DNA from: Balanoglossus misakiensis
Lineage: Eukaryota > Animalia > Hemichordata
Reading direction: 5' to 3'
Assembly (NCBI GenBank): GCA_040954595.2
Contig: CM082580.2
Location: 5,074,783-5,138,782 of the forward strand
DNA length: 64,000 nucleotides
Shown here: in pieces, positions 26,439-50,300 of the stretch
Position numbering within the stretch: the stretch's first letter is position 1
Layout of the letters: each line of letters opens with the position of its first letter
Notes under the pieces: model-generated
The model's input: the letters and a program-made list of their open reading frames with translations, nothing else
The model's database searches: none
What the model was told of the DNA's origin: nothing
Made by a program: the position numbers and the translations under genes

Positions 26439-27474
26439 TTAATCAATGTCTTGACACCATTGTTCTAGCATTATGAGGTGTTGTTAAAATGTCAGAGTTC
26501 GAACTTGGCTATATATACTGTTAATTTTAAAGAATAAAACAGAGACCACATTTGACTTCCCACCGAAGTATTGGCCATCCCGTCTCTCTCTTCATTCCGA
26601 GCCTACTTCCAAAGTGTATGCTGTACAGTTGAATGTGTATACGATATGGGGATCTATGGACAATATGCTTTTTATAATTGGAAGGCAGGGACTATATTAT
26701 GTTATTACAAATACAGGTTGTATGCCCTGTCCCCTATTGGATAGTGACGTTGACTTGGACTCGAAAGGTAAAGTTGGGGGCAAAAGTGACCCCCCTAAAC
26801 ATTTTAAAAAAAAGATGCCCCCTCCCCGGGCGTAAAACCCTGAACGGTCCCTTACTTACTTTGGACTAATGCAAATGCAAAATTTAATTCACATTAACGT
26901 AAACGTCGCTAAACTGACTGACTCAGTTGGACAATGAAAAAGTGTGGATTATTTCAAAGGGACTACACTACTGACAGAAACCAGTGGACAAAAAGTTTTT
27001 TGAACATTTTTATTGGCAATATCTCAAACGACCACTAGACTGAATCCAATTTTGATATTTTTTACAGTTTATGCACTTGTTAAAATCACAAGCACCACTC
27101 TCAAAGGAGGAGGGTCGTCTGTCCCTCTTCAGTGGTTAGAATTTATTTTTCGTAAAATGTAACAAAAATGCATAGGCAGTTGCAAGCTCATAATAGAACA
27201 CCACCATACATTGTTACAAAGTTTAATCGGTCATGTTGCTTGAGTGAAAATTGCAACATTTCTGTGGTAAATGTTGCAAAGTTACATACATGTACATATC
27301 ATACATAAATAATGCAATAGAAAGTTACAGCCACATTGTTTACAATGACATGCATTGTCGCAATTACACTTTGCATCTACTTTGACGAGTTAGAAACTAT
27401 GTTGTTTGTGAACCATACCAGCAGGGACTGAAAAACCATTTAAGACAGCTTTTGGTGATACTCTCTGACTATGA

Positions 27475-29861
27475 CTATTTTGTCATGTGATGTTCCTTCT
27501 TATCATGTATATTCAATGATTTCTGACTGATGAAGGAAATCTGGCAAATGTCACATGACACCTCGGTTGGTGCACCGTGGGCCTTGATGTGTTGTCTCAA
27601 CTGTACGTTCCAACAGCTCTGGTATTTGCACTTGCTGCACTTGTAAGGTTTTTCGCCCGTATGCGTTCTCTCGTGCGACACAAGCTGCGCTTTCTTGGCG
27701 AACGCCAAGTCGCATGATTTGCATTTGAAAGGTTTTTCTCCAGTATGAATCCTCTGATGGTCTTTAAGATTTCTGGCCTCTACGAACCCTTTGCCACAGA
27801 ACTGACACTTGAAAGGCTTGATGTTCAGATGCTTCTTCTTGTGTTTTTCAAATGACACCTTACAGACAAACTGCTTGCCGCACAGCTCGCACAGAAACCT
27901 CTTCTGGCTGCTGGTCTTAAACTTCTCCCGGTGTTTTCCAGATACGTGTTGCGACAAAAAGCGCTTTTTCACACTCTCCCCGCAGATATAACACAGTACA
28001 TTTTCGTCCTGGTGACCCTTCAGGTGATTTGTCAAATCTTGCTTGAGTGCATACCTCATGCTGCAGTCTTTATGAGGACAGACAAAAACCTTTTCTGACT
28101 CAGAGGCGTGGCACCTCAAGTAGTGTTTATCCAAATTAGACTTGCGGTATGCTGCATACTCGCACTGGTCACACTTAAAATTAAGTGGACGGTGTCTGGC
28201 CTTCACATGGTTTGTCAGCGCAAACTTATGGATTGTTTGGTAATCACACTCTTTGCACGTGAAAGAAGTGTTGTGGCTCTTTCCCTTGCTGTGCTTGATG
28301 ATCACATGTTGCAGGAGATCCCTGTTAGTGGAAAACCTCTGACTGGGGCACTTTTTACACCCTAAACATCCATTTTCCAACACTTTTAACATTTTCTTTC
28401 TGTCATCTAGCATGCTTTCAACGGTGGAGTCATCGAAATGTTCTGCACTTCCATCCAAGTCCTCGAAAGAGTCATATTCGCTGTCATAGTCACTGCTATC
28501 ATCGTCACTGCTACCTCCAGAGCCATCTTCACTGTCTTCCATATCAAAGTCCATGTCCTCTGTAGGCCTTACTCGTTTCTCCTCTTCATCTGAGCTGCTG
28601 CTGTATTTCCACAAATCATCATCATCATCTTTCCCCTCCTCCTCCTCCTCCTCCTCCACATCATCATCATCATCTCTTCCTTGACTGACACTATCTCTTT
28701 GTTCACTGTCGTTACCACCTGCAACACCAACAGACGTTTGGTCCTCCTCCGACACAGATTGGCCAGCCGCACTGGCCGTTGCACGAGGCCCGTCATTGCT
28801 ACCTGCGTATTTCTTCCACCACGGAATGAGTTTTTTGTTCATCCCCATAGATGCCTTCCTGCGTGGTCTTCCATGCGCACCAAGTTCTGTCACTTGCTCC
28901 TCAGAAGTGCTTTCGACATCTGGAGTGCCTGTGGTCGTTTCCTCACCATCCTCTGCACTGCTTGCCGTTTGATTATCACTGTGGAAAAAAATCAGTATCC
29001 TTGATGATCAAAGTTGCTTCTACACTTACCAGTGTTCTCCAAAGGAATTAATGATAGAACATTAGGTGCGATTGGAATATTAATTATTATTGCCGAAATT
29101 CATGAGCAACGGCTGTTATGCTCAGGGGAGAACACATACTGCCTACACGCGTAGCAATTAAGGATGAATGGTCAGTAAAATTGAAGTATTGACATTTCTT
29201 TTAATTGTGCACAACTTCTAAAACTGTAGAAAGTGCTGGTGGTTCAAGCTCTCTTGAACTGCCATCCTAAGTGAAACCCTAGGCTCATGTAATACGGTCA
29301 GTGTAATCAGTGTTCCATATAGTTGTCCAAAAAAATGTCATATGTGAATGTTTACCTGCAGAGTTTTGGTGGCTCTGGGGGTTCATCTCTCTTTGTAGAA
29401 GAGTCCAATAATTGTTTGATGTCGTCTGCAAAAAGTGGGTGAGAAGAGGCGTGTTCGTACCTAGAAAGAATCAGAAATTTGTTCTAAGTCAAGTGCTGAA
29501 TAACTCTATCAAATTTTCCTGATATTGTACATGACACATTTTTAATGATACTACCGGGGGTGGTTGAAATGGAGAAGTCTGAAAAGAGTCTACGACTATA
29601 TACGTACAACCGCATAAGGAACTCGGCCGTTCCGTTTGCGCTGCAGTGGAGACGAGACTGCAATCTGCGCCAACGAAAATACTGGTCTCCAACTTGAAAT
29701 AACTGCTGCGATTTAGGCAATCCACGTTTCGTCCCCACAGTCTTCTTGGCACATTTTGGTCGTGAAGTTTCTTTGGTACTAGCATGTTCTATGGTAAAAA
29801 TCGCTGGTTTCTTGGAGGCGCGACGGGAACGCTTCAGAGAAGTCTTCTGCTCGTCCTCCAT
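27475..29861 (-). CDS. C2H2 zinc-finger gene C (10 fingers), 3 exons
   Basis: Exons at 29861-29608 (..FQVGDQYFRWRRLQSRLHCSANGTAEFLMRL), 29460-29356 (YEHASSHPLFADDIKQLLDSS..) and 28978-27475. All junctions are phase 2 and in frame. Confidence 0.85.
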
Positions 29862-31850
29862 TTTGCTGGCGAACTTTGACCCCGCCAGAAGTGGATCATT
29901 GGCAGGGATAAACCATTTGTCGGGGGCGGGGATGAACAGGCTCCAAAAGGCAGCTGGGGCCAGGGCAGATAGATGTGTTATGCTATATTTTAATCAGCTC
30001 GGTTGTGGCTAGCTCAAAACAGTGGATAGCCATTTGTTTAAGCAGTCTGTGGTTTGAGTGTGGAATGAATAATTTTTTTTTTCATGAGTAGTATTCACAA
30101 TGAGAAAACAATGTGTTTGTATGTGTATAACTTAAATCTTTATTATGCTTTATTTCGAGCAAAGTGTAAGCAGTATTTTGTGACCCCCATAGGTTCAAGC
30201 ATGGCAATCTTTTATTGACATCCGTTGATGTCGCACTGAATGCCAACACAGAAAACATACAACAAATAAACAAAAACAAAATAACAATCCAAAAATTGAA
30301 CAGAGAATATACTACGATAACTGAGTCTTCTGAAATGTCTATTTCTACCTAGTGGTTTATCACATCTGTCACAGTCATAAAGACAGTTGTAGAGCTCATA
30401 TGCACAATATAACTGGTATACTATATTTGCAATTCTACTTTGCAAATATGTGCATCAGTTGTCCTTATACACTCAACTCCACTGACAGCCCAAAATCACA
30501 GACCATAATATTGCATCGCAGATATATTGAATGCCCATTACAAAAAAATAGCCAGACTTGTTCATAATTAAAGGAGTTGCACTAGTTTGACAAAAACATG
30601 AAATATACATATAATGTATAAATACTCTGGAATGCAGGTGAAGGTGAAAATATACCAAAGAAAAAAATACGTTGCTCTATAGTCCTACAACTAAGATTCA
30701 CTTCGCAACACACTTTTTGGTGGCTGGTATAATGGGGTAATATGTTGCCTTATCATTCAGTCTACCCATATACATTGTATATATGCAGCACACAGGTCTT
30801 TTGATACAATGCAACCAACATATTGCACATATTAGAAGTGTCACAAAATGTAACCGACCAATTTACATATTTTTGACTGGCAGTCCTTGTTCTTGGCAGT
30901 AGCCAAGACTTTCTTAGTTTTTACAGTTGAGTCCAGACGTGGTAAATTTCTGCTCATGGCATTAGGTGGACATAAATTTACTGATACCTATTGATATGCA
31001 CATGAACATTATACTGCCTTATACAGTATACTAAAATACACTGCCCCAGTGTCACAGTGACATTGAAAGAAATTGGGGGCATTTCAACGTGAATTGAACA
31101 ATTTGTGATTCATGAGCAGACTAAAGCAAACTGAGATGATGTAGGTATCACTATGTAAATACAAGTCTCAAGTCCTTATTATAATGCCATCATAGAAGGC
31201 AATCTGCTTTCACATGTTGGTGACAGGAAAATAACTAAAAATACAGAGAAAGTCCTCTGTGAAGGAAATTGAGTTCATGACCCAAGTGTCTAGCACACAC
31301 TGCAAAAATTATACAATAATTGTACTGTCATTTCTGAAAAATAGGCAACTGGAATGCAATTTGTGAGACTCAGAAAGTGCACTGCCAACTGTGCCAGCTT
31401 AGCATGTAAGGTGCAGATTGGGCCAAAAAAGTAGCTCTGGAAATGATAAAGAAGCAAATGAAATCACCACAAGTTGGCCATCTTGGATTGCATTGCAAAA
31501 GCAAATAGCATTCATGATTTGAAGAAGTGTTAAGTAGTTTTCACATCTTACTGCCAACTCTTACTGAGAAATTCAGAATATCAGTAATTACATGTATTCT
31601 CTAGTCTTACCCTGTCAGAATAATTTATATGACATGATTAATATGCATAAACATTATTGCATCATTTTTCATTCAAAAGTAACAACACAGTGAGTTGGCA
31701 AAGGCAACTGAACAGGCAGACATTTTCACGATGATTAAAAGTTAGGTATGGCACAGTACATTTAAAAACGTACACAAATGTCTGAAACTAAAAATGCCCA
31801 ATACATGTACCCCCCCCCCCCACCTGGACCTGTGCAATGTATAAACTCGG

Positions 31851-33372
31851 TTACACGTCTGTGTTATGTTGTTTCTTCTGATGAATGCTCAGTGCTTTCT
31901 GACTGATGAAAGAAATCTCGCAAACGTTACACGACACCTCGGTGGGCGCACCGTGGGCCTTGACGTGATGCCTCAGTTGGATATTCCAACAGCTCTGGTA
32001 TTTGCACTTGCTGCACTTGTAAGGTCTTTCGCCCGTGTGCGTTCTCTCGTGCGACGACAGCTGCGCCTTTTTGGCGAACGCCAGGTCGCACAGCTGGCAC
32101 TTGTAAGGTTTCTCCCCGGTATGAATGCGCTCGTGGTCCTTCACGAACTTGCTGGCCGAGAAACCCTTGCCGCAGTACCGGCACTTGAAGGGCTTGATGT
32201 TGTAGTGCTTCTTCATGTGGTTCTGGAAGACGCCGATGCTCTTGGAGGAGTACTGCTTGCCGCAGATCTCGCACAGGATCGTCTTCTTGGCCTCGCCCGA
32301 CTCCTCCTCCCCTCCCCCGCCGTGCTCCCGCTTCACGTGCTGGCTCAGGTACGAGCGGCTGACGTTCTTGCCGCAGACGGGGCACGTCTCCGTCTTGTTG
32401 TGCGTCCGCATGTGGCACTTGAGGTCCATCTCCATGGCGTACTTCATGTTGCAGTCCTTCCACGAGCAGGCGTAGATCCGCTCCGAGTCGGGCGCGTGGC
32501 ACCGCAGGTAGTGGCTCTGGTACATGTGCTCCAGGTACGTCTCGTAGTCGCACTCGCCGCACTTGTAGTTCATGGGCCCGTGCTTGGCCTTGTGCCGCGC
32601 CAGGTGCTTCTTGGTGTTGGCGCACCAGCCGCAGTCGCCGCAGATGTACTGGGTGATCTTCTTCCTCTTCCTGTGCGCGTTCATGTGACGCAGCAGCCTC
32701 CTCCCCGTGGTGAAGATGGCCCCCGAACACCTCTTGCACTTCAGGCGGCCGTCCGCCAACGTCTCGAAGAAGTCCTTCTTCTCGGCTAGCATACCCTCCA
32801 CGGTGGCATCATCCAAGTCTTTCAAAATTTTAACCGCGTGCCCACCCGCCGGTTTGTTCTTACTTTCTCCGATCTTACCATCAACAACAACATCCTCATC
32901 ATCTTTTGCATCTGCGTCAGCATCCAAAGCATCGTCCCTCTCCTGCTCCGCTTTATCCTCGTCGCTCAAACAAAAATCGCTGTCTTTGTCCTGTCTCATC
33001 TTTTCCATCTCGTCCCCCGAGCTGCTGCTGAACTCGTAGTCTATTTCATCGTCCTCGTCGCGAGGAACACGTACAGCTATGGGAACCCCGGCCGAGGTGG
33101 CAACGGCTCTCTGCGCGTAATTCCTCTCTAGGCTAAACGGAACCGAGCTCACTGACTGGCCCTCCTGCGTCCCCGCCTGGCTGGCCACGCGCGCGTGCGG
33201 CTTATTCTTCGGTTTCTTCTTCCACCAGGGGATCAGCGTCCTCTTGATCATCAGCGAGGCCTTCCTGCGAGGTCTGCCGTGCGCTCCGAGTCCCAAGTCT
33301 TGTTCCTCACCGGCACTGCCCGCCTCTTCAGCGTCTATGGTCTGCATGGAAGAATTCATTACTTGATCACTT
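31851..33372 (-). CDS. C2H2 zinc-finger terminal exon D (10 fingers), most divergent paralog
   Basis: A phase-2 acceptor at 33372 (SDQVMNSS..) opens an intact 502-aa ORF with the GAHGRPRRKAS..IPWWK motif and 10 C2H2 fingers. Confidence 0.88.
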
Positions 33373-33790
33373 CTGTGAACGGAAGGGGCAGTGAATACCC
33401 AAAATCAGTTCAAGCACGCCCATAGTGGCACTCCTATTGTACAGGAACACGTTGAGGTTCTATGCGCCTTGGCGACAGATTTTCAGAAAATTTTTACTTC
33501 TCCAACCTTTTAATGTTTTGCTATATGGTAAAACCTAACAAGCCCTGCCTTGAATATGTATATAGTCTTGCATCCAATCAAGTACATGAACTGTGCGATT
33601 GACTTTCTCAGCAAGTGTATCAGGTCATTCACATGCAAAATACATACATGACGCTAGGTTGTCTTTTTCGTCAGACCCCCAAAATGCGGGATAGATACTA
33701 AGCCAGGGGTATACTGGTAGCTATAGTTTGTGGAATTTGAGTAGAGATAAAGCTCAACTTCTACATAGTTTGTAATGGGCAACAGCTCAC

Positions 33791-33904
33791 CTGTCAGGTT
33801 GATGAAATGACCCGTCTGCAGACAGCGTGGGTTGCTCAGCTTCGGAGGATGGTCCATGGCTTTGTTGAACATTAAACATCTTAATTTGCGATGAGAGAGA
33901 AATT
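33791..33904 (-). CDS. ZF locus cassette exon, 114 nt, phase 2-2
   Basis: CAG|..|GTGAG boundaries; encodes ISLSSQIKMFNVQQSHGPSSEAEQPTLSADGSFHQPD. Confidence 0.55.
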
Positions 33905-34022
33905 CTGCAGAGAAAACAAAAAAAGTAACCAACTTTTGATATCTAGACTACAGCTGTTGGTAACAGCTAAAAGCATGTATCATCACTGCACACAATCACG
34001 CAGGTTTTTTCATGACACTTAC

Positions 34023-34133
34023 CGTTTTTTCAGTGGCTCTCCGATTTCTCGTCTTTCCTGGTCTTCGTATTCCGGCCACTGACATTCCGGCCACGATTCA
34101 CGTTCTGTTTTGAGATGCAGGTGCTCAAGGTAC
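34023..34133 (-). CDS. ZF locus cassette exon, 111 nt, phase 2-2
   Basis: TAG|..|GTAAGT boundaries; encodes YLEHLHLKTERESWPECQWPEYEDQERREIGEPLKK. Confidence 0.6.
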
Positions 34134-34326
34134 CTAACAAGACAGAAATTTTTATTAAATAAAAGGGAAAATGTTCAAAAAATCAGAAGCATAATTTTAT
34201 GCCGGAGTATGCAGCACAGACTTCGAGACCAGGAATCCACACGTTTTCCCCGATGGCTCACCAAAATACAAGGCTAACGGACATGCATCATACAATTGTG
34301 GAAATCTGAATGACAACACAACATAC

Positions 34327-34425
34327 TTCACTTTCTGCAGCTCTGTACTGTCTTTGGTTCTGTGCGCGTCACTTTCGGAAGAGGTATCAGTCTGTTCAGT
34401 TCCCAAGCCTTGACGGTCTTTGTAT
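34327..34425 (-). CDS. ZF locus cassette exon, 99 nt, phase 2-2
   Basis: CAG|..|GTATGT boundaries; encodes YKDRQGLGTEQTDTSSESDAHRTKDSTELQKV. Confidence 0.6.
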
Positions 34426-34741
34426 CTGAACAGGTATAATGCAAAACAGATTGGATGAGACACTATTAGTATTGTGTGGCATACAAAAACAATTAGATAC
34501 ATTGTAATCACTCTTAGGCATTTGACCACATGGCTGTATGGCTATACACACAGAAAACACACATGTGCAGTAGTAAACACAACAGGCACTCACATATTAC
34601 CAGTACTATAATCATATTCATAAGTACATTGGTAGCTCTTGTTGTTCTGTCCGATGTTCCCTATCTCACTTGTAGCATACAAGCAAACCTCATGCCCATA
34701 CCCCCTAGGGCATATGCAAGTCCAAATGACACAACACTCAC

Positions 34742-34834
34742 TTCTTTTTCTGTGGCTCTGCCATCTCTCGCCTTTCACAATCTTCACTTTCCGACTCCGT
34801 CTCCCCTCTTCCAACATCTTCATATTCGTCGTAT
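34742..34834 (-). CDS. ZF locus cassette exon, 93 nt, phase 2-2
   Basis: CAG|..|GTGAGT boundaries; encodes YDEYEDVGRGETESESEDCERREMAEPQKK, similar to the 34023-34133 exon. Confidence 0.6.
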
Positions 34835-35135
34835 CTGTAAAGTTTACATAAATCTGTGGAAATGTCTACTCACAATAGAAACAATAACAATAGTGACAAT
34901 TGACTTCCGTATTGCATTGTTGTGGGAAATCAAAAGAAAGTTCCATGGCCTAATTTTAGACAAAGCTGTCCCCTTTTCAAGTTTTTGGAACCCATATTTT
35001 TTTTCCTTACTTGAATATACACAGTTTTCACAATTTGCAAATGTTTATACATATTATGCATATGGTTTTGTGGTCAGTTCTATGTATACACATAGTCCAG
35101 ATAAACAATGACATTTTTATGGTGCAAGACATTAC

Positions 35136-35258
35136 CTTTCCCTTTTCACGTTGTGTGATGAGATCCCTGGGGGTGGTACCACAGGGAGTTCGAGTATATG
35201 TGACGGCTCTCTTCTCGGCCCAGTTGATAAATCCTCTGCACCAGACATGCAAGAGTCT
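35136..35258 (-). CDS. ZF locus cassette exon, 123 nt, phase 2-2
   Basis: CAG|..|GTAAT boundaries; encodes DSCMSGAEDLSTGPRREPSHILELPVVPPPGISSHNVKRE. Confidence 0.55.
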
Positions 35259-36262
35259 CTGTAACAATAACAATGAAGAGAGACCAAATCAAATAAATGT
35301 GAAAATATACCACTTTGGTGCAATAGCAAAAATTAAAAGATATTACCGGTACATTTCAACGAAAGTGTCCCAAAAATTGGTGCTGTGACACAGACTTGGC
35401 TTAGGGTCAAGTGGCTAAATGTTACGGAGTAACGGTCTCAGAACAAATCTTTGTTGGGCCTTCCGTATTTTCATCTCTTGTCAAAATAACGGTGTTACCA
35501 TTGGCTGGGTTCAATAAGAAATCAACGGGCCAGGCAGACTTTAAAATGGGATGGTCAGATTAGCACTTTTACAATAACATGACTGCTGCACACAAGTCGC
35601 CATACACTATGAATTTTCACCGTACCCTGATCAAATGCTGTAAATTTACAATGACCTTACAGTACAGCATACTGGCTCATACACTATAGGCAAATTGTGT
35701 GGTAGAAAACACACTTTGAGTCTACCCACCTATCAGCTTCACCCGAAGATGCGTCTGACATTCCTGGGTTTTCAGAGTTTTCTTCTGCCACAACCCGGCC
35801 TTCACTGTTTTGCCCAGCGGGAAAACTATTGCCTTCCCAGGTCAATTTGACCGGGAATACTTGAGGATCTACATGTCTTTTTTTCAACAGGCCATAAAGA
35901 AATGCAACAAGTTAGACAAGAACATTGGGCCGGGAAAGTTCCGTCCTTCATAATGATTGTCACTATCTATGATTATTGTTAGGCAAGGGAAAAAATCCTT
36001 TTCCTCAAATTCAATATGTCTTTTTTAATCACTCATTAATTTGCTTTGCAAAAATATACTGAACATTCTTTTTTTCTCCATGGCTTTATCAGATATAAAA
36101 CGAAGCACCAATATTCCTTCCTGTCACAGTGTACACTACACCTGCATTCTACAGATTTGACCTGTTTCTTTTTGCAATTGACAATGAAGTTTAATAGACT
36201 CCTTTTCAATGAACATGACTTTGAGATACTGAAGAGACGTGTACAAATAATGGAACACTCAC

Positions 36263-36361
36263 CTAGTCCCTTGTTGCTCAGTTTCTTGACTTGCACGGTA
36301 ATGACCTCCTTCTGACAAGGGATCTGACTGCAATGACTTGGGGTCCTGATGTTTATAGTAC
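36263..36361 (-). CDS. ZF locus cassette exon, 99 nt, phase 2-2
   Basis: CAG|..|GTGAGT boundaries; encodes YYKHQDPKSLQSDPLSEGGHYRASQETEQQGT. Confidence 0.6.
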
Positions 36362-36986
36362 CTGTAAAACATACGATTACGGTACAGATCAGCACTAAGA
36401 TTCTAACTGGGCTACCTTTGGGATAATCCTAGGCATCTAACTGTCAATCTTTGTACAAGTTGCTTGCATGAATGATTTGAAGTGGGAGCCAAAAGACTTG
36501 GGAACCAAGCAACCACTTCCTGTTGGAATATGCAGAAACACATCACAGGACATGATTGAATGATGAACAATAAGTCCCCCCCCCCCCCGTAATCAACAGG
36601 TCCTGCCCTAAGGCTCGGCCAAGAACAAGATGGTGTCTCATGAATGTTCTTATGTTTACATGTGTCGAGAATATGCCATCTACCATGATATTTGGGGAAT
36701 ACTAAATTATACCCTGCCAAAATTTTAGCGTCTAATACAATGTACATATAGACAGGAAGCTTCACTCCGCGATCGGGGCTATTTTCGCTTTGTCGGCGTA
36801 TGTTGCGCGCTTCTTCCGGGTCTACTTTAGATACACGGCGAGTGCAACAGACGCAGAGACCACGCACACTCATACCGCTTATTTTCCGAAAGCGAATTTC
36901 TGGTGTGCCAATGCCCGCGCCCGTTCAGGAAGTTCATGTCGGGTCACCAGCCAGGCTGTGATATAAATTTTTATCTGCAGACTTAC

Positions 36987-37210
36987 GAATCAATCATCAC
37001 CATTGCCAATTCGGGACTGGAAAGCCCCGTGAGCCCCTTCAACTCCATCCACCTTCCGATCTGATTGCCGATGTATATTTTGCAACGATTTTTTTGAAGG
37101 TTACTCTCCCGCCTTCGCAACCTCTTAGCTTCGGCTGTTTTACGCGGGCGTCCTCGCCCCCGGCTCTGCTGCTTTTCGCAATTTTCGCCGACTTCACTGA
37201 TCGACGCCAT
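36987..37210 (-). CDS. Alternative first exon: AT-hook plus ZNF653/692-like N-terminal domain
   Basis: Encodes MASISEV..RGRGRPRKTAEAKRLRRRESNLQKNRCKIYIGNQIGRWMELKGLTGLSSPELAMVMIDS and ends in the phase-2 donor TC|GTAAGT. Confidence 0.75.
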
Positions 37211-38135
37211 ATTGTTTCAGTCTTTCTACACGAGCATGCGCATATCGTCGCATTTTCTGTATCCACAGATTTATACAGGCGTCGCAATGCAGTCATGTTT
37301 TGATCTATCTGGCTGCAGTTTTTACATGTTTCATAAAACGAAATAAATACCCATCCACTTTTTGTAGAATAGAAATTTTATTGAATCGTTAAAGCGACGT
37401 CGGCTGTCACTTCCTTGCATTATTTTCATGATTTTAATTTCATAAACATATATTGCCTTTGGTTTATTTACATCCGGCCCAGGGAAAGTTAAATTTTAAC
37501 CGAGTTTAAAGCAGGGGCAGCAAAGCCGCATGGGTAATCCCCTATGAGTGGTCCTCTACATGGTTAATCAGTAAAGTAAAAGTAAATTGTAATATCATGT
37601 GAAGTATCAACCACACTGTTTGCAATGATGTACATTGTAGCGATTACACTTTGCACAATACTTTGACTTGCAAGCAACTGTGTCCATAGACATTGTTCAA
37701 TATTCTGATGTTTCTGCAAGTACATTTTAATAACAGTGACTTGGTGCAGACAAGATTAGTCGTGAATAACTCAAGATATGTAACCTCGATAAAACAGCCA
37801 AGAATGTCTGTCACTGTAAAGCCCTAATAATTAGAGATGCTCATTTCTGCACACATGTAACTTGCTCTATGTCCATTCATTCTCATACCTTACAACACTA
37901 CATGTGACCATACTCTTTGTTCTCTTGGGACATTATCTATGATAATGCACTGGTACCAGTGCAATATCTGGATATTGCACTGCACCTGGCATAATAAGAT
38001 TCACTACGACAAACAAGATAGCTATGACAGGAGGTACTTTAATTCATGCAAAAAATACAAAGCAAATTAGTTGTTATCCATTTTGAAGGATATGCTGCCT
38101 CCGGCGGGGAGAACAGCTTTCACACACGGATTCAC

Positions 38136-38443
38136 CTGAAAGCTTGATTTTTTCGACGTACCAAAACTTCCTTGAAGCACTTTGCTGACTTCGAACTGTT
38201 GCTCGAGACTTGTACGCTGAAAAGAGAGCTGCTACTTACAGAAGAGGATGTGTGCAGTGGGGGCTGCATTTTCGCCAAGTCACATTCCGTGACCGTTGGG
38301 TTATGTACGCTATCTTCGACGAGGCTATCAAAATCTTGGAAAATCCAGTCCATATCGCCACCGTCATCACCTTCGCTTTCGCTTGGGTGTCGGAACGTGC
38401 TCTGGGTAATGAAAAGCTCGTGCTCGTCGCTACTTTCGGCCAT
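38136..38443 (-). CDS. Alternative first exon, acidic (possibly Crypton-transposon derived)
   Basis: Kozak context ACCATGG; encodes MAESSDEHELFITQSTF..KNQAFR with phase-2 donor AG|GTGAAT. CCAAT boxes and a hairpin lie upstream. Confidence 0.55.
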
Positions 38444-38649
38444 GGTGTTTGTCTGTCGAAGGTTGAGTTCCGAATGATGATGGAAACGTGGCACCTCAAT
38501 GACCACGTGACAAATGCCCTGGCTGACAAGTATCCAATCGAAATGAGTCATACACCAGGTGCATTTTGCGACGCTTGTGATTGGTTGATGTGATTGAGAA
38601 GTTGTTTAGCATATATCTAGATCACAGATGTTGCGACGTGTTGTAAGCC

Positions 38650-38720
38650 GGATAATGTACTCGTGTCGTGCAATCGTTCGTTCAATATCTGAACGATTGC
38701 ACTCCACTCGTACATTATCC
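38650..38720. repeat. Imperfect palindrome/hairpin (possible transposon terminus)
   Basis: GGATAATGTAC..GTGCAATCGTTC pairs with GAACGATTGCAC..GTACATTATCC. Confidence 0.7.
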
Positions 38721-39257
38721 ATTACTTATGCCGCGGTTACTAGTAACCGTGCTTATGCATTGCATTAAACGGGGCAAAAACGACCACACACTCCGTCGTA
38801 ACTTAATTTCAAAGTCATGCATGATTTTCTATGATTCAACATGGCACTTAACATGGGTCATTTCAGGCTGCTTGAAAGTGGTCCTCCAGAAATGCCACTA
38901 AATTTCACTTTGTGGTCAAAGTGCATTTCTGGGTAGGATTTGAGATAAATAACAACAATCTTACATTGGGTTCACGCAAAAAGTGATCGAAATTAATGGA
39001 GGACACTTTTTAAACCCGTAGGTATAGTATATTAGAGATACATTCTATTCCCCATTCTCTGTATTCAACTCGTATATACGAATTATCTATAAAGTGCTCG
39101 CTCGCAACATAATAGCACGATTTTCGCGGCTTCACCGCTCGTGGCGCACTTCGTGTGCCCTGAGCGATGTCTGGCAAGCGAGGCTGCGTTTTGCAGGGCT
39201 CGACTGAGCTCTGTTGTTCAGTGCACAGCTACTCAAACGGTCACATGGTGTCCTCAC

Positions 39258-39559
39258 CTTGTGGACTGGAGAGTTGCTGTAAGATCTCCGCTCGCGTTTC
39301 CCAATGTCCGACTGTCGCCCTCATTTTGCGCCTGATGTAGTGGGACATCGACGTGGGGAAAACAGTCGCGACATTTTCCCCTGTGCAAATCCAACAAATG
39401 TTCAGCAAATTTTCCGTTAGACGCTTTCGAATAGTGGACTGCCTTCGCTTTCTTCCACATTTCAAGCGTATCGTATAAGTAGATTCTGGTTTTGTCCCTC
39501 CTTTTCACCCAAGCGGGTGTCTTTTCACGATCTCCGACACAGATTATGGTCGCCGCCAT
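39258..39559 (-). CDS. Alternative first exon: ZNF653/692-like domain with HxxxCxxC (paralog of 18016-18347)
   Basis: Start context AAGATGGCGGC; encodes MAATII..RRDKTRIYLYDTLEMWKKAK..NGKFAEHLLDLHRGKCRDC.. with phase-2 donor AG|GTGAGG. Confidence 0.72.
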
Positions 39560-39642
39560 CTTGTCTGTTGTTTGACAGCACACTGCCTTATGGGATTGAC
39601 TGTTCATTTCCCCCATAGACAATGATCGATGGCCACGGCCAT

Positions 39643-39936
39643 GGTAGCGTTGAGCTAAATATTGCTATTTTATAACTTTCAGCGAGCAGAATCGCTTTAA
39701 GTACAGTCAGAACAAGGTCTGTTTGTGCACAGGCTAAATTTTCGTCCCGGCAAGTCCATTGATTCTTTTCGGGAGGTCAAAAATAGCGCCCTCGGTGGTG
39801 ATTTTGATAAAATTCATGCCAAAGTGTTGGGAATTTTGAACGCATCTCAAGATGCTATTTCCAAATACCCTACATATGATCTGGTAAATCCTACTGAACA
39901 TCAACTAAGGTCTCAAAATATTAGGCAATGCACTAC
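39643..39936. mobile_element. Interspersed repeat/MITE copy 1 (GGTAG..CACTAC ends, Kolobok-like)
   Basis: Highly similar to 44671-45031. Confidence 0.65.
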
Positions 39937-40978
39937 TTTTTTATGAACTGTAAGTTGTACTGAGCGACTAGTAGCTCTGCTTGGCACATGATGGTCACCA
40001 ATAGTGAAGTATGCCTTGCTTCCAATCCCGAGTTGCAACAAATAAAAATGGTGACGCACTTTGAACATCCCTGGTTCAGAAGTCATCGGATTACAATCAA
40101 AGTACACACACACACACACTGTTTAAGGGAGCCATCATTATTTATGGCCTGGGGACACAAAGGAATATGAGAGGGGTCTCTCAAAAATGGAAAGCAGGAA
40201 GGAGTAGGGTTTCAAAATAAAGCGAAGAGGAAGAAGGTGTGATTCAACCTGATTACTGAAGTAGACTAGTGAACATGTTTGTACTGGGCTCATGCTGTAC
40301 ATGACCACAAGGCTTCCCATAAAACTCATGGAATTACACACATAGTCTGAGCCTAATGTATATTTGGTCTGATTATAGCACGAAGCTGCTGGGCCCCCTT
40401 ATCACTATTGATGGTCAAGTCTAATGAATACACCATGCACCTGACCTGTCAATTTTTAATGTTAAATGTTTTCACTGTATCTGGAAGAAAAACTCTGTAA
40501 TGTTTACAAAAAGAATATTGTCTGAACCATTTTCTTGCACAAGTTAACCCAAAACACATGCTTCAGATTGGGTTTTATGTTACATGAAAACTTCAACTCT
40601 ACCTAAAATCAACTCTGATGTAATAACATGCGAGAAATGGATATCTGGTGAAGCACACATACCTTTACAAATTAGTGGTCATTTTTATTTCTATTACAAA
40701 ACGTGCAGTGAAGTTAGCTGCTATTTCCTTACATGCCGCATTATGATTGGTCGGTTTATAATTAGTTTGGAGCCAGGTGCATGACCTGCACTGGTTGATG
40801 TTTTGATGGAGGGGGTGTCATTGAAAATTTGTTAGAAATGGGGGGGGGGGGGGGGTACTGAGATTCTGCATGCTTGGCGGGAGAGGGTGTTACTCAAAAT
40901 TTTAGTTTCAAGTGAAAATCCTTCAACCCCCCCCCCCTCCCCCGGCCGTAAGTAATGGCGGCTCCCTAAATCACATAC

Positions 40979-41190
40979 CAGTCGATCAGGAACGTTGCAA
41001 CTTGATGGTGCGTTTTCAACGAGCGTGTTCGTTTTATATGATTCCACCGACCGATTTCAGAAAATATATTTATGCTGCCTGCTTGTTTTCGGGCCCGTGC
41101 ACGCTTCCGTTCTGTCTCACTCAACCGAGGACGGCCACGCGTCCGTTTCTGTTCCGGACCCACATGCAGGTCCAGGGTGGACTCCGCCAT
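40979..41190 (-). CDS. Alternative first exon: AT-hook plus ZNF653/692-like N-terminal domain
   Basis: Encodes MAESTLD..KRTRGRPRLSETERKRARARKQAGSINIFSEIGRWNHIKRTRSLKTHHQVATFLIDW and ends in the phase-2 donor TG|GTATGT. Confidence 0.72.
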
Positions 41191-41892
41191 TGTTGTTATT
41201 GTAATATTTAATTTGCATAATGCGTAACGCCCTACTTTTTCAAGTAGGCCTCATCAGTCTACTCCGGACTGTGGTGGCGCCCTTGTTATCTGCTAAGATC
41301 GAAAGATAAAATCCCGGGATAAAATCAACTTTTGGCTGTTTATGTCGCCCATACGACATACAGGATGAGCAGACAAGAGTAAAAAAAATCAGCGTAGATC
41401 TTGAACGTGTCGGCCGCCGGTTGCCTAATGTCACATGCGGGGTAATGACCCGGGGTTGTGGTTCTCATAATTTATCTACTTGTTACGTATGATGTGTTTA
41501 CAGAATTAAAGGAAGGTAATCTTTTTTGCGAGCTTCCCTAAAGAAAAAATAATGACGAACAAGATGGGACCCAAGTGTTTATTGTTTGCACGACGAGATA
41601 GGGCACACCCCAGGGAAATAAACCACCGAAGCGGGAAAACGACAAAATACTTTATCGGTGACCGAAGCCTGCAAAGTGATCTAAATCATATTTTCTGACA
41701 TGTTTGGTCATTTTAGTTCCGGGTTCGAAACCCCAAGCATTTCTTTATTCAATTTCTTCCGGGTGGTGGTGGTTCCAAGACGTGGTGCTCCCAAGACAGT
41801 GTGTCAAAACTGCTTGACTGCGTTAACCACCGACATTTTCGATAGATTGGAACACGTAAGGAGTGTAAACCTACGGTGGGCATCGGGCATCT

Positions 41893-44308
41893 ATGTCTGT
41901 GCGTACAATGACTGGATATCATACCCGTCTGTCATGTTTTATTGTGTATCTCTTCGTCTTGCGACAGTCAGGTAAGCAGATTACGATGGTGGTGGTTCAT
42001 ATATGTTTGTCCCGACTGTTTTTCTCCATGCAAACGAAGCCTCTTTTTAAAAGACTTATCACGCGAATTACAATCATTCCGAATGTCAAATTTGATACAA
42101 TTTCGCCTCGTCTGGCATTAAAAACGATATGGTGTGAATCCTTACTTTTGATATAGATTTTGAAAGTTGCCTTGAGCGAAATATGGGGAAAAAAGCTTTT
42201 CAAGGAGCATACTACCTAAAAAAAAAATTAAGTTCTAATACTGCCCTGAATGTTGTATAGTTTGCGGCAAATACAGTCATCTGCGACATTAGTTGCCGCA
42301 GGACAGGTATATACACGAATATGTTGGGTATTTCGAAAAACTACAGTTTCTGACTGGACTGATTGGTACAACTCAGAGAAGGCTGCTCAAGATCATTTCG
42401 ATTCTGAAAAAATTGAAGATATCCAGCATGTTCATCCAAATCTTGCGTGTGACAACCCAACCGCTATGGATGCAGCCACCGTAGATGGCGTACCTGCACT
42501 GGAAACGGGCGATGTATTTCGCCAGTTCAATTCCAGAGGACTACATTGCCAAAACGAAGATCAAACAAATAAAACATGTGAAGATTATAAAGTTCGTTTC
42601 TGCTGTCCAGGTAGAGCCACTGGTTATTACTGCTGTATCTTGTGCTTGTCACGACAACTGATTCTGAATGAATGACGTCATTGGCATCACATTCGTACGT
42701 GCACACTTTCCTAATGACAGAAGCAACAAAACATAAAACTTGGATGTTTATCAATTTATGTTGTTCAGAGAAAACGTTCTGACAAATAATTCAAACTGCA
42801 AGTGGCGTTTCAGATCCTCGAGTCATTACATAAGCGCATCTGAATTTTTGGTACTGGAGGTAATATACACATTTTGTCAAAATACCAACCGGGTATCCAC
42901 GTTACCTCTGACAACATAGTGTCCACAACATATTGGCGCCATTTTAAATGGTCATTCTTTTTAGGGTCACGCGGAGCAACGACTTGTCTGACTGGGGACT
43001 TTTTGAATCAGTATCCAATCTTGACATCAACTGTTATCAAAATACCAGAGGTACGTGTGACCCATCTTTTGAAAAGCATATAATATTTTGATAGAACTTC
43101 TTGACCTTTGCCGTTAGGCCTACTGCAGAACGGTGCGGTAGTGCGAGTGGGCATAAGTGGAAAAACTGCGAAAGCTAGATAGGTTTTAGACTACCCTAAC
43201 TCCTTTTGTGTATTACTTTTCATAGAATACCAGAGTGGGGGTAGCAATATACAACGTATCTGATTTTCAGCGCAATGAACATGACATGAACGTCAACGCC
43301 ACATCTGTCGAAATTGTTTACGGGAACAAGGTAAATCACGTCGTCCAGTTACATGCAAGCATGCATGCATGTATGTATGTATGTATGTACAGTTTGCCAG
43401 CTCTGAAATGGGGTTCAATAACTAAGCAATGTTTTTACAACTTACAAGTCGTTCCCCACACAACTTATACTTTGTAAATGCGCACATATTCACACAAATG
43501 GACAATCAACTTCATCTAGTCAGGTTACAAGCGATTTTTTTTCCACTGCTTGAGTGATGATAGTGTCATCCACCATGAAATACATGTGTCACAGAAAAAA
43601 AAACCCGCATTTTATGCAAAATCTGAATGCAGTGATAAACAGCACTTTATGTTTGTCAATTTTGTTGGCATCGTCTTCTCTAACTGGTGCAACACATATA
43701 CCTTGTTTTTGTTTCAGTACAATCGCTTTGGTGTTGGCGATGATGACGCTCGAATCCTTGTCGCCGCAATTCTATCAGCAGACATAACGCCCCATTTCAA
43801 CCTGACCATACATGTCACAAGAAATGTAAGTACAAAAATGGCCAAACCGTCAACCTATTATTCTAATATATGCCATCAGTCCATCAGCGAATGACAAGTG
43901 TAATGTTTCAGATGTGTGCTGTTTCTTTAGCTTTTCTGTCCCATCACCGGAACAAGCATACCGTGTGAATTATGAAATAAAGTCACCATGTGAGATTTTT
44001 TATACGTGCACGATGTCGCAAGTAGCAGTTCGATCCCAAACATCTCGGCATTTTATTTGTAGTTTTGTCTTGTTTTACAGAATAGTACTATTGAAGCGTT
44101 TGCATTAAATGTAGAGCTTCAAGATATAGACCAGTGGCCACCATACTATAACAGGACATGTGAATCAAAGGAAAGACCATACGTATGTGTGTCTGTTTAA
44201 TATTTTTTGACATCCATAATGTGTACACACATTGTACAATTTTGTTGTCCAAGCAAAAGGTTTTATTTGCGAAGAACAACTTCACATGACTAATTGTGCG
44301 TGTAATTT

Positions 44309-44349
<41 letters not shown>

Positions 44350-47300
44350 GCAAATGTCCACGCCCGCAACTCTTCAAGATTAAATATTGGCCCTGGTTAA
44401 TGGATTGGAAACTCAACGGAATCTGGTCGTCTAAACACCCGTCTTCCCACCGCACGAAGAACGACCCTGTTACTGACATGAGCAGTTCATCAAAGTGTAA
44501 GTACCAACTAATGTGATATTGTTCCACCTTCAAAGTTTGCATTTGTAACTCAACACCCACATCTACTAAAAAACGGATAACAAGAACACAACGAATGACT
44601 AAAGACATATAATAGCAATTCGATGATCAGTGGGCGCAAGACCTGTAATTCATTTCCCATAAACGACAATGGTAGCGTTGAGCTAAATATTCCTATTTTA
44701 TAACGTTCAGCGAGCTGAATCCCATTAACTGCAGTCAGAACATGGTCTGTTTGTGCACAGGCTAAATTTTCGTGCAGGCAAGTCCATGGTTTTTTTTTTG
44801 GGAGAGGTCAAAATAGCGCCCCCAGTGGTAATTTTGAAAAAAATTATGCCAAAGTGCACAGTCACCTCATCTTGCATTACTCCGCTGTGTACAACAACAT
44901 TACACCACATTCTCTCACACCAGTGGGAATTTTGAATGCATCTCAAAATGCTCTCTCCAAAAATGCTACATATCCATGGTAAATCCTATTGAGCATCAAT
45001 TCAGGTCTCAAAATATTAGGCAATGCACTACTTTTTATACGAACCAGGAAGTGAATTACAGGTCTTGTGCCAGTGGATGCTAAACAAATGGAATTACAGT
45101 CAACGGTGGACAAAACAATAAGCTCCTCTTCTTTCGTCCATAGATATGTGTTGTATTTCTTATGTCACGATCTGTCTTGTCCATGTGGCTTAACTGGGGG
45201 AGGTCGCGTAAATCCTGAGATTGTGTTTCTACGGTGTCCGGAGTACATAGAGTTTGGAGTACCCTGTACTACTACAACGGTAGTATATTATGAGAAACCA
45301 AGTTCGGACACGAAAAAGGGCTGAACACATCAAAAGCATAAAATTAAAGATCCACCCCCCCCCCAAAAAAAAGTACAAACCTTTGAAAATACCTTACAAA
45401 TTCAAACCTTTACTCTGGTCACTCTATTTACTTGACAACGCCATATATCGGCGATAATTCACTGTATCGGTATACTTCTCCATATTCATATGTCCAGTGC
45501 GCCATTAGGATGTGTTGTCGCGCAAAGGATAAAAAACACCGATAACAACAATATTGCAGCTGGCAAAGTCAAGTGTTCCATACACACTCAACTCTGACAG
45601 CAAACGCATTCAACATCTTATTTCAGGCACTGTGCATATGTACTATCCCGTACCTCTTGCGCTGCTTGGAAATAGTCCGGATGATTTAGTGGTGGAAGTT
45701 ACAGACAAAACAACTGGCAATGTAGGCGAGTTGAACTTCCTAACCGAAAGTGAATTCGAAATTTTCCACTTGATCCCACTTGCTCGCTTAGACGTAAGTT
45801 TTTTTTTACCACTGGATTTCAGTGGCCCCTGTAAGCTGATACTCAAACGATAATTTCGTATTCAGAAAATATCCTTTGTGTGCACAAATACGCATTTCTG
45901 CAAAATTGTTCATGTAACCTTGGTTAATAATGTTCAGGACAGATGTTGCATAATAGTACATGATCGTCCGCATCAAAGTATTTATCGGACTAAGTTTAAG
46001 GTGTATGTGCGACGACGTGTGGCTTTTCAAGTGATTTTTTTATTGAATTGAATTGTATTGTATTGTATTGTATTGTATTGTATTGTATTGTATTGTATTG
46101 TATTGTATTGTATTGTATTGTATTGTATTGTATTGTGTTGTATTGTATTGTATTGTATTGTATTGTATTGTATTGTATTGTATTGTATTGTATTGTATTG
46201 TACTGTAATGTATTGTAATTTTAAGAATATCAAACAACTTGTAAATGTTTCCAATGCAAATTCTGAAAACAAACAATTAATAAAACTGTTGATGCTTGTG
46301 TTTTTTCTTGAAATACATCAGACTTTTTATCTTTTCAGTGGAACTTCCCTCCTGCCCGGCATTTTATAGACCTGCACTCTAATAACCGAGATTATATAGC
46401 AGAAAACATGTTATTGGAACTAGTAGTGCGAGGTTTTGACACACACCGAGACTGGATATATGATGTGTCTATTCGGGGACCGAGGATAACGATTCCTGCT
46501 TATGAGTCTTTTCAAATTGCGGTTGTCGGTAACTATGAACTTATCATTGCCATGACTGACTCGACCGTGACATATTCTAACTCTAAACCCCCTGGCTCAG
46601 TCTGTATCTAAAACTGGTCCTTCAACACATCATTCCGTCTATATATCTTATTATAAATCTCAGTTCAGCATTATGCCAATATCATTACGTCCGTTGTTCG
46701 ATGTTAGGCTGTTATTACTTTGCTGATAACACCAGAATATTGAACGGTTTGCGATTATTACAAAGTGTGTAGTCCAGCGTTACATTATGTGTCAAACGCC
46801 CAAGGTCAATATACGTCACACGACGGACTGTGCGCAGCAAATTTGAATAACAGTCACACTGGCATTCATCACACGGGGATGCACATTACCAGGTCTTCAA
46901 ACTGTGCCTTTCAATTTCGATCACAAGGTTGTCCGTATGGAACGTATGGAATTAAATGTGAAAAGGAATGCATTTGCAAGAATGGGGCAACCTGCCACGG
47001 GTGGAATGGTGCTTGTAAATGTGCTGTGGGTTGGCAGGGACCGGCGTGTGACATCCGTGAGTAAAAGCATGTGGATTTGTTTTTTTAACGACAGGTACAA
47101 GACAAAATGCGTATAAGTTTCAACTACTTATGTGTTGCTCATATTGTTAAACCACATTTGTATCACCGATGTGAACCGAATATACCCACGTGGTTGGTCT
47201 GTTATATGTAATGTAATGTAATGTAATGTAATGTAATACTGTTTAACCACGGCTCCAAGTGGTAAAACGTCTCTGTGAGAAATATAGGTGCAGTAAGTTT

Positions 47301-50300
47301 CATTAAATTGGCTGTTGTAATTTCATATCATCTTTGGCAGCCATGGCTCCGAGTGTCCGGCTATTTCCAGAGTCTTCTACTACAGTCCCGATTGGTGGTA
47401 ACATTCTTCTTCGCTGCCTTTTCATAAATATGAAGAGACACCGTTTTGACTGGCAGCATAATGGAGAATTGATCCAAGTAGGAAACAGGATACAAGATCT
47501 GTCTGCGGGGTGAATACGTGTATTAAACTTCTCCTTTTTGGATGGAATTAAATCATGTCCTTATGTGTACCCGAAAAATGCAAAATATCTATCCACCGTG
47601 CATTTCCATTCAACTTTCATTCAATATCTTGAAGATGTTTAAGCATTGCCATCTGCTTGTAACCATGCAAAGGAAAATGTTGCAAGTGTGGTTCTCTCAT
47701 CAGGAACATGGTAAAGAAACTAAATATATCAATGGCAACTAAGTCAGATGCGGGTATATACCAATGCGTTGGAACTGGATATAACACGGGCGACATCCTT
47801 ACTTCTAATGTTGCTGTAATTACAGTGGAAGGTTGGTATATCGGAATGGGAGCGTTACGAGATGAATTGGACGACCAATAGGCCACTTCCATGACCCATA
47901 TATGACCTGACGTCCTTGTACTTCCGTTGGTATGGGGTTGTCAAGGTTGAACATTTGGGACAAGAAACGTGCAAAGAGTCCATTTTGTAATTCAGTGCAT
48001 AATGTTGTGTTGACTTCAGCTGCAATTACCAACGGAAGTACTAGGATGAAAGGGCACATCGTGCTCAGGGGAAAACCGTTAATATAAGGCATAATGTTAA
48101 ATGTACTGAAGATTTTCATTCTTCCCCCTTTACTGGTAATGAAATAATGTGTCCAATTATGCATACCGGTAATGCCCAGGTAGTCGTTTTAACATTTCGA
48201 TCACCATCTGCACCTTCTTGGTTATTTGTGTCTGATAGGTTGCCAGGAAAACTTTTGGGGGCGTAATTGTACTGAGAAATGCGACTGTGTTCACGCTACA
48301 AACTGCACGCGGATTGGTGGATGCCAGTGTCTACATGGGTGGACGGGGAAGAGGTGTAATATAGGTAACTCGTTTGTTGAAGAATCACGGGCTAGTTGTA
48401 ATAACGACACACAAAAGCGTACAGCCCAGGAAAGTACAGAAGGCTAACAGTACAGTACAGTACAGTACAGTACAGTACAGTACAGTACAGTACAGTACAG
48501 TACAGTACAGTACAGTACAGTACAACAGACAACCTGCATAGCACATATAATTATAACAAGATCATCAAATCGGCGAAATCGAAAATAACAACAGTATCCT
48601 GTCCCACACATGTGCCACCAGTATTTATCAATTTCTGAGATGAGGTGAGAATATGCTGGGATATGTGTATGTAATGTACATTTCCCCCCAAACCACATAT
48701 TTTGTAAGCCATGTTACATTATAGTTAATCTTGCCTGTTTTATATTCTCAAACTAGATATTCAGAAACCGTTCATCACCAACTGCCCACATGACTTCAAC
48801 AAAACGGTGAAGTACCCTTCAGGAAGAGCCTATGTATCTTGGCAACCAGTAAGAGCAACTGACAATGATGGCATTGCCAACGTAACATCCTCTCATCTGT
48901 CCGGACAAGACTTTCCAGTTGGCACATCAGATGTCGTAATATCCGTGTTTGATCGTTGGGACAATTCAGACACGTGTAACTTTACGGTGACAGTCGAAGG
49001 TACTATATTTCGCCTTATTTAAAGGGTTTATGACATGCTTTGAAAAGTTTTCATTTTTCCCCATCTAAAGCTCACCTAGGGAACCCGTCTATGCATTGCC
49101 TATTGTGTCGGTTCCGAAAAATGTGCGCGAATGCCGGAATTTGTCCCCTTTTTTCATGCCTGTGATCAGGGAGCCACTTCGCACTCGAGCCAGGCGAAGG
49201 TATTTGCATATGGACAAACAAGTACACTACGTCGTAGTGTACCATTCTGTTTACAGTAAAGTGTAATTAGCGGTCCATGAGTAATTAAGTCCACAGACAA
49301 AGGCAAGCTACATAAACAGTGTTCAAAGCAAAGGAAGCCCTTGCCTAACATTACAGGCAGAGGATTTACAAAGGTGTGAAAGACTTTGTCCACATCAAGA
49401 TAAGTCTTCGGCTTAACATTGAAAAGCCGAAAAAAATCGACTGAGTTGGGTTAGGGGTACACGCCCACCCGCCACTTTTACTTGCTTGTTATCTAAGCAC
49501 AAGGGGCAAAACGCATTGCAAGATAGTAACATACGTTAACTTCAAGACCCAAAGAGTGATTTTACGCGTGGTTGTATAGGGCATGGCATGAGACCTTTAA
49601 ATATGTATCCGATGTTCTAGGGTTAGGGCTTATATTCATCCCTTGACATTTCAGACTTATTGGCTTCGAGAGCCAGTTACCTTTTGGTCAGAGACTAGAC
49701 ACATTTCTCCATGTAACACGCCTGGGTAACTCGAACATATAAACGCTGTGGGCATATTATATATACTTCTGCATATAAGATAGATGTTCCAGTGTTTTGT
49801 ATTGAATCCAGTACATTGATATTGGTTTGCAGCATTGTTTAATGAAGACGACAAAAAATCAGCCATTATGGTTATGGGAGTAGTAATCACATGTTTATTT
49901 ATGCTATTATTGACTATTATCGCGGTGGCTATGAGACGGAGGAGCAAGTCAAGGCAAAGACATCTCTATTCTCGGGTTGAACGTGCAGATAATCTATCGA
50001 AAATTCCGGTAAGGCATAATTAATTAATTCATTCATTCATTCATTCATTCATTCATTCATTCATTCATGTTTTGAGTGAATGTAATTGGCAGAGATATCG
50101 TGGAGCTTATATCTGTCGTATGCCTGTCTTAGAAAATACAATTTTGATAATGCACTTAGCCTTGCTGGCTATTATCTTTTACAGTCTCTTCTAGATTAAT
50201 TCACAAGACGATGTTGTATACAAATAATGACTTTGGGAGGGGATTGTTAAGATCTGTAAAATTCATAAGCATCATGTCTGTTATAGAGACACTTTTTGCT

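Follow-up and report, generated by a model that had tools for sequence, protein, structure and literature searches.

A candidate array of alternative first exons upstream of a C2H2 zinc-finger gene of the hemichordate Balanoglossus misakiensis

Can a single zinc-finger (ZF) array be joined to several different N-terminal heads by the choice of promoter? This question is raised by a stretch of 64,000 nt from Balanoglossus misakiensis (GenBank assembly GCA_040954595.2, contig CM082580.2, positions 5,074,783 to 5,138,782 of the forward strand; the whole of it is called the window below, and all coordinates are those of the window), in which four ATG-bearing exons, designated A to D in 5' to 3' order, are lined up on the minus strand upstream of the remaining exons of a C2H2 ZF gene. 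The initial annotation of the locus had proposed that they are promoter-bearing first exons. The best reading of the evidence is that promoter choice swaps the N-terminal module: exons A-D are each likely transcribed from their own promoter and spliced, as alternative first exons, to a shared exon 2, a reading to which we assign a probability of roughly 0.55.

The array belongs to the most upstream member, gene 1, of a tandem cluster of four paralogous C2H2 ZF genes on the minus strand (16164-33404). Its terminal exon T1 (31851-33372, minus strand, stop codon at 31851-31853) codes for an acidic region followed by a C2H2 array, as do the terminal exons of the three other genes, and the fingers of T1 scored above the Pfam cut-offs (zf-C2H2 58.1 bits, zf-H2C2_2 84.4 bits, zf-C2H2_4 70.6 bits). 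The initial annotation, which described the array as upstream of a single ZF terminal exon, needs to be corrected in that gene 1 is one of four tandem paralogues, and the N-terminal module discussed below is also present in the first exons of genes 2 and 4.

The four ATG exons and their joining to the zinc-finger exon

All four exons are read from the minus strand. Exon A (40979-41190, 212 nt, ATG at 41190) codes for an AT-hook-like RGRP core and a two-helix module and ends at a phase-2 donor, GTATGT, after position 40979. Exon B (39258-39559, 302 nt, ATG at 39559) codes for the module without an AT-hook, followed by a H-x4-H-x3-C-x2-C tail, and ends at the phase-2 donor GTGAGG after 39258. 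Exon C (38136-38443, ATG at 38443) is acidic and lacks the module; its best donor, GTAAGT after position 38240, is in phase 0, and a weaker GTGAAT after 38136 is in phase 2. Exon D (36987-37210, 224 nt, ATG at 37210) codes for a canonical AT-hook and the module and ends at the phase-2 donor GTAAGT after 36987. The successive ATGs, located as initially annotated, are 1631, 1116 and 1233 nt apart. The strong starts described earlier were likewise present, ATGGCG in A, B and D and ATGGCC in C, with A at -3 and G at +4 in all six ATGs when the first exons of genes 2 and 4 are included, and in exon D the ATG is preceded, at a distance of 9 nt, by a stop in the same frame. The canonical phase-2 donors, originally attributed to all four exons, were found in A, B and D; in C the strong site is out of phase.

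Open reading frames (ORFs) of at least 68 codons that start with a Kozak-strong ATG and carry a phase-2 donor-like site numbered five in the region 36400-41400 (C counted twice, with a nested ATG). The same count in 1000 dinucleotide shuffles gave a mean of 0.057 and a maximum of 2, with 0/1000 reaching three, and the arrangement of four ATG exons is thus far beyond chance. No nucleotide similarity was detected among A-D, nor any copies of them elsewhere in the window, and the array region contained no tRNA, no Rfam family and no direct repeats. Inert transposon fragments, an explanation considered from the beginning, were rejected for the window, in which the exons had neither a Pfam transposase match nor repeat families nor further copies.

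The internal exons of gene 1, curated by hand from the sequence with frames and phases checked by script, are seven in number and all on the minus strand. Shared exon 2 (e2, 36263-36361, 99 nt) is in phase 2 at both ends and supplies the Tyr that follows the module. It is followed by e3 (35730-35804, 75 nt), e4 (35136-35258, 123 nt), e5 (34742-34834, 93 nt), e6 (34327-34425, 99 nt), e7 (34023-34133, 111 nt) and e8 (33791-33904, 114 nt), which have an open frame and are bordered by canonical AG/GT. The lengths of all seven are multiples of three and every intron is in phase 2. Joined to e2-e8, exons A, B and D give open coding sequences (CDS) up to the T1 stop of 815, 845 and 819 aa, respectively, and the predicted proteins are identical apart from the N-terminal module. 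The donors of A and D lie two bases into the codon after the final Asp of the module, as does the first-exon donor of gene 2, GTACGT; since the next exon begins with G-TAC in genes 1 and 2, the Tyr following the module comes from exon 2. The B-type exons (B and its counterpart in gene 4) continue through His-x4-His-x3-Cys-x2-Cys to a later phase-2 donor. Exons e5, e6 and e7 (34023-34834; 93-111 nt) each have a Tyr codon after the split codon, an acidic character and a Lys-rich end, and resemble products of tandem exon duplication. A stop-to-stop ORF of 170 codons (36412-36924, minus strand), partly within a CpG island and with no evident function, lies in the intron that directly follows D.

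The C2H2 pattern was absent from all six frames of 33373-42200, and tblastn with two ZF exons (T1 and T4) over the same region gave nothing significant (best E 1.6). The earlier statement that no terminal ZF exon lies between the array and position 33372 therefore stands, with the addition that the seven small internal exons do intervene. The lack of any ZF remnant between the ATG exons also means that A-D are not simply the heads of complete neighbouring genes.

Islands without CpG depletion mark germline-unmethylated promoters in genomes with methylated gene bodies. Three such islands cover the array: 40900-42299 with exon A and its upstream DNA, 38100-39699 with exons C and B in one continuous piece, and 36700-37499 with exon D. 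The observed/expected (o/e) CpG ratio within +-300 nt of the ATG was 1.14 for A, 1.01 for B, 1.19 for C and 1.31 for D, compared to 0.25-0.75 around the seven internal exons, which bears out the CpG-richer patches of the initial annotation, and to 0.28 in the gaps between A and B and between C and D. The first exons of genes 2 and 4 had ratios of 0.89 and 1.10. A promoter element common to all four ATG exons was not found, and the upstream TATA-like, YY1-like, ETS-like and CCAAT-like consensus matches were given no weight as evidence.

Under the proposed mechanism, each CpG-undepleted island would hold a promoter, and a transcript started there would be spliced from the donor belonging to its own first exon, passing over the ATG exons further downstream for want of good acceptors. 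The promoter would thereby set the head of the ZF array: an AT-hook module in transcripts from A or D, a module whose His/Cys tail might bind metal in those from B, and no module in those from C, either through its weak in-frame donor or with C being effectively a non-coding first exon. The initially proposed swapping of the module by promoter choice can be maintained as a likely reading for A, B and D, which are frame-compatible with the shared exon 2 and the ZF exon and lie in CpG-undepleted islands; C is in frame only through its weak donor.

Exon C does not belong to the module exons. Its search against the 1662 six-frame pieces of the window found no relatives (best E 2.2), and the ESM Atlas returned a low recognition value (1201) and no usable match. 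When spliced through GTGAAT it gives an open CDS of 847 aa, and through GTAAGT the frame stops after 70 aa. Exon C, with or without B from the same island, might therefore represent a separate short transcript or a non-coding first exon, in which case an isoform starting there would be translated from a downstream ATG into a module-less protein, similar to an annotated module-less isoform of 800 aa in Ptychodera flava (XP_070552764.1). The phase-0 position of its GTAAGT donor and the missing relatives are in line with this explanation, which we nevertheless regard as improbable, given the strong start context of C, an ORF of 103 codons whose end coincides exactly with the GTGAAT site in phase 2, just as is seen in A, B and D with their donors, and a CpG island no less pronounced than the rest. 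About 210-280 nt upstream of the C ATG, at 38650-38720, there is an inverted repeat of 30 nt (87% complementary, with a spacer of 11 nt).

The N-terminal module and its relatives

The module shared by A, B and D consists of about 45 residues. It opens with a basic or AT-hook stretch and a short hydrophobic segment; a helix carrying an invariant Trp is then linked by a loop to a second helix, which carries an invariant Ala and ends with two hydrophobic residues and Asp. The motif originally noticed in the three exons, written as a regular expression, had four matches in the six-frame translation of the window, namely A, B, D and the first exon of gene 4, and 0 matches in 100 dinucleotide shuffles. 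The gene-4 match is independent of the three exons that defined the motif. Homology within the window (1662 six-frame pieces) was detected between A and D (E 8.6e-6), between B and the gene-4 exon (E 1.3e-11) and between D and the gene-4 exon (E 0.012), so that profile homology among the exon peptides holds for A, B and D and fails for C. A profile of five window exons picked up two more pieces, 18556-18467 (E 6.6e-4) and 24610-24296 (E 0.0041), the next one having an E-value of 1.4.

The AT-hook of exon D scored 18.1 bits against PF02178, above the cut-off of 17.4 bits; that of A, with the RGRP core present, scored 13.1 bits, below it, and no AT_hook match was obtained for B or C. The heads with an AT-hook or a HxxxCxxC pattern, as originally described, are thus represented by D and by the H-x3-C-x2-C tail of B, respectively, with A falling short of the cut-off and C having no module. 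In a Pfam search at E up to 10, A and D had AT_hook and one chance-level row each and B and C had nothing; domains known from the N-termini of ZF proteins (KRAB, SCAN, BTB, ZAD and others) had no match in the exon peptides. The module differs from an AT-hook alone in that the hook forms only its first part, with the two helices following, and in B the hook is missing.

AlphaFold2 models were calculated from a shallow alignment of seven rows. The D model (pLDDT 69.7, pTM 0.30) has helices at residues 23-42, 47-61 and 65-73, predicted with moderate confidence, and the B model (pLDDT 61.5) has helices at 28-42 and 48-60, with the His/Cys tail disordered at low confidence. Foldseek comparison of the predicted D module with the PDB gave 0 matches at E up to 10, and the VIA-align wide search gave a best Z of 3.8, with none of the 48161 chains reaching 5. 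The PDB sequence matches to the module alignment, a designed protein (E 0.033) and TetR regulators (E 0.17), were taken as chance. The nearest ESM Atlas clusters to D are unnamed, eukaryotic and mostly chordate, with lengths of 67-81 aa, at 0.91, 0.90 and 0.88, and serve as a lead only, in keeping with the vertebrate relatives suggested in the initial annotation.

Outside the window, relatives came from Ptychodera flava. Among the 120 matches listed for the T1 protein, two were informative and the rest were poly-ZF proteins; the best outside matches to T1 among those listed were two P. flava proteins with 55% and 47% identity over the ZF part. The P. flava gene closest to T1 has an isoform with the AT-hook and the module (XP_070552763.1, 898 aa) and another one lacking those 98 residues (XP_070552764.1, 800 aa), both by annotation, which gives alternative heads a precedent in a related animal. 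The five-exon profile, run against 270 fetched ZF proteins, had three matches, all of them from P. flava: XP_070565588.1 and XP_070565587.1, isoforms of one gene with two modules each (E 3.5e-14), and XP_070552763.1 (E 0.0037), the next best value being 0.11. Word-based searches recovered only XP_070565588.1, both with its own residues 1-170 (553 candidates) and with the module alignment against longer proteins (7992 candidates). Pfam analysis of the N-termini of XP_070552763.1 and XP_070565587.1 produced only AT_hook at 15.3 bits and a chance-level row. XP_070552763.1 resembles exon D in the canonical AT-hook preceding the module, and the RGRP core is common to XP_070552763.1 and A; its gene, however, is annotated with one module exon and not with an array. 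In XP_070565588.1 a Tyr follows both modules, at the position supplied by exon 2 in genes 1 and 2.

XP_070565588.1 has its two modules in series in one chain, unlike the A, B and D predictions, and suggests a second way of reading the locus: some of the exons could be internal and read in series, yielding two or more tandem modules, with the ATGs serving as internal Met or secondary starts. Gene 1 would tolerate this, since all its introns are in phase 2 and any added phase-2 exon stays in frame, and a possible in-frame intron of 41 nt lies between the two module exons of gene 4. The B. misakiensis array itself fits poorly with such a structure. Exon D is preceded by the in-frame stop; a simple-score scan detected no pyrimidine-tract acceptor in phase 2 ahead of B, C or D, nor any small exons or Tyr-exons between A-D; the only way to join A directly to the open frame that precedes B would be through a weak acceptor rich in purines; and the exons are 1.1-1.6 kb apart, each in a CpG island. 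We therefore consider serial reading in gene 1 improbable and keep to alternative first exons as the preferred reading.

With neither a Pfam model nor a structural match, and yet kept in Ptychodera flava, the module may define a new small domain family. It may aid either the targeting to AT-rich DNA or chromatin, through the hook and the basic helix, or the binding of a partner. The N-termini of ZNF653 and ZNF692, as proposed in the initial annotation, may be similar in having a basic stretch and a hydrophobic-Trp-Leu/Ala pattern. Neither protein was among the 120 matches listed for T1, a result of little weight as the listing was filled by poly-ZF proteins, and their ZF arrays differ in number from that of gene 1. 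Residues 1-97 of ZNF692 are reported to contain the signal for nucleolar localisation as well as an Arg-rich motif on which NPM1 binding depends (PMC10956046). A bolder and rather doubtful interpretation would see the module as an unrecognised deuterostome-wide N-terminal domain of ZF proteins, encoded by a 5' exon of its own, with the phase-2 intron before the invariant Tyr conserved, and perhaps identical with the ZNF653/ZNF692 N-terminus; by promoter choice in the manner of protocadherins, the present locus would swap three or four such heads for targeting or partner binding.

Age and decay of the module exons

Intact module first exons are also present in gene 2 (29608-29861, minus strand, phase-2 donor GTACGT) and, of the B type, in gene 4 (18016-18347, minus strand, phase-2 donor GTGAGT). 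Two further exons of the gene-2 type, both on the minus strand, are decayed: the one in gene 4 (18470-18580) has its basic region deleted and a stop four codons after the kept ATG, and the one in gene 3 (24299-24454) has internal deletions that leave the kept ATG out of frame; both still retain the ATG context and the donor.

Exons A and D have 24 of 56 residues in common, and B and the gene-4 exon 28 of 67. Silent sites in these comparisons are saturated (pS 0.78-0.94, with pN of 0.40-0.43), and no dN/dS ratio is given, pS above 0.75 meaning saturation. Despite this saturation the ATG context, ORF, motif and donor are intact in A, B and D, which are old paralogues, neither recent nor repeated copies. 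Gene 4 shows once more an exon of the AT-hook type (18470-18580) ahead of one of the B type (18016-18347), and B and its gene-4 counterpart (42% identity) are about as diverged as T1 and T4 (50%). From both observations, it is probable that several module exons were present at the 5' end before the old duplication took place.

The decay seen in this same cluster, in genes 3 and 4, and the weakness of exon C as coding sequence lend some credit to the idea that only one promoter and first exon is in use today, for example D as the nearest or A as the outermost, the remaining ATG exons being left over from ancient duplications of exons or genes and either surviving by chance or having gone out of use too recently to decay. 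This we consider unlikely, albeit the most serious competitor to promoter choice: exons saturated at silent sites, mutually and with respect to the gene-4 exon, have nevertheless kept their motif, ATG context and phase-2 donor as well as an ORF of 70-100 codons; ZF remnants between A-D are absent; and each exon has its own CpG-undepleted island.

Several points weigh against alternative promoter use. Transcription, promoter activity and exon choice are all predictions from the DNA sequence. The T1 terminal exon is CpG-undepleted as well (o/e about 1.0), so that CpG richness is not promoter-specific in this gene, and the patches of B and C form one island. The serial modules of XP_070565588.1 and XP_070565587.1 demonstrate that module exons can be internal; in gene 4, removal of the possible 41-nt intron would place the B-type exon in frame behind the module exon, now decayed, that lies upstream of it; and one weak, purine-rich candidate for a phase-2 acceptor does exist upstream of the B ATG. 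Exon C is a poor fit, with its best donor out of frame, no relatives and low Atlas recognition. Finally, as module exons have died in genes 3 and 4, one or more of A, B and D could have been lost too recently for any damage to show.

The cluster, its neighbourhood and comparison with known first-exon arrays

The terminal exons of genes 2, 3 and 4 are stop-to-stop ORFs on the minus strand at 27475-29007 (T2), 20788-22296 (T3) and 16164-17672 (T4). T2 and T3 are 89% identical, each of them is 72-73% identical to T4, and T1 shares 47-50% with the three others. Genes 2-4 are compact, with 4.6-6.7 kb separating the terminal exons. T2, T3 and T4 directly follow a very short intron (about 53 nt; 28985-29040, 22300-22350 and 17680-17735, minus strand), whose GTAAGT donor is conserved and which is preceded by a micro-exon of about 21 nt. 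Gene 3 (22250-24610, minus strand) seems to have no intact module exon; its B-type exon is reduced to the first 39 nt (23310-23272), it keeps a homologue of gene 2 exon 2 (23235-23113, 86%), and it may be either a pseudogene or a module-less gene.

Exon A is the 5' edge of the ZF cluster, as its upstream neighbours are plus-strand genes. The closest of them, about 1 kb upstream of A, is represented by a Mucin2_WxxW exon/ORF (42250-42672, plus strand; PF13330, E 1.6e-18), beyond which EGF/kinase-like and kinesin-like ORFs follow. The CpG island of A reaches the Mucin2_WxxW ORF, and a bidirectional promoter region may therefore be common to both. Short tandem repeat runs at 46000-46370 and 48450-48560, reading CIVLY or QYNTI/QYSTV in several frames, are simple repeats within the neighbouring plus-strand gene region. 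On the other side, the cluster is adjoined by an FBXO30/FBXO40-like gene on the plus strand (9817-12531), whose two GC-rich exons code for an F-box (PF15966, E 2e-21) and for a zinc finger of the TRAF-like kind (PF15965, E 1.9e-35).

Only a few families, such as the protocadherins, UGT1A and GCNT2, are known to possess arrays of coding first exons that are paralogous to each other. In the protocadherin and UGT1A genes, splicing starts from the donor of whichever first exon the transcript begins with, and the first exons downstream of it are skipped. A limited literature search found no report of such arrays in ZF transcription factors. Together with the clustered protocadherins, UGT1A and GCNT2 are multiple-variable-first-exon clusters (PMC1885805). 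The locus resembles them in its tandem paralogous ATG-bearing exons (A, B and D), which precede a common set of constant exons and end in donors, and in the N-terminal position of the variable specificity part; the apparent lack of acceptors and a candidate promoter for each variable exon would extend the likeness. The donor is in phase with the first constant exon in A, B and D, and in C only through the weak GTGAAT. Unlike those clusters, the array includes only three to four exons, one of which (C) is unrelated to the rest, and its variable part is a transcription-factor module of about 45 residues and not a whole extracellular or catalytic domain; moreover, its promoters and splicing are predicted from the genomic sequence.

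The locus is a probable further case of the variable-first-exon organisation. With its module exons in both intact and decayed states, the cluster as a whole is a natural series in which the partitioning of alternative first exons following gene duplication can be studied. If alternative promoter use is true, the choice of promoter would equip one and the same ZF array with different N-terminal heads, a compact way of regulator diversification.

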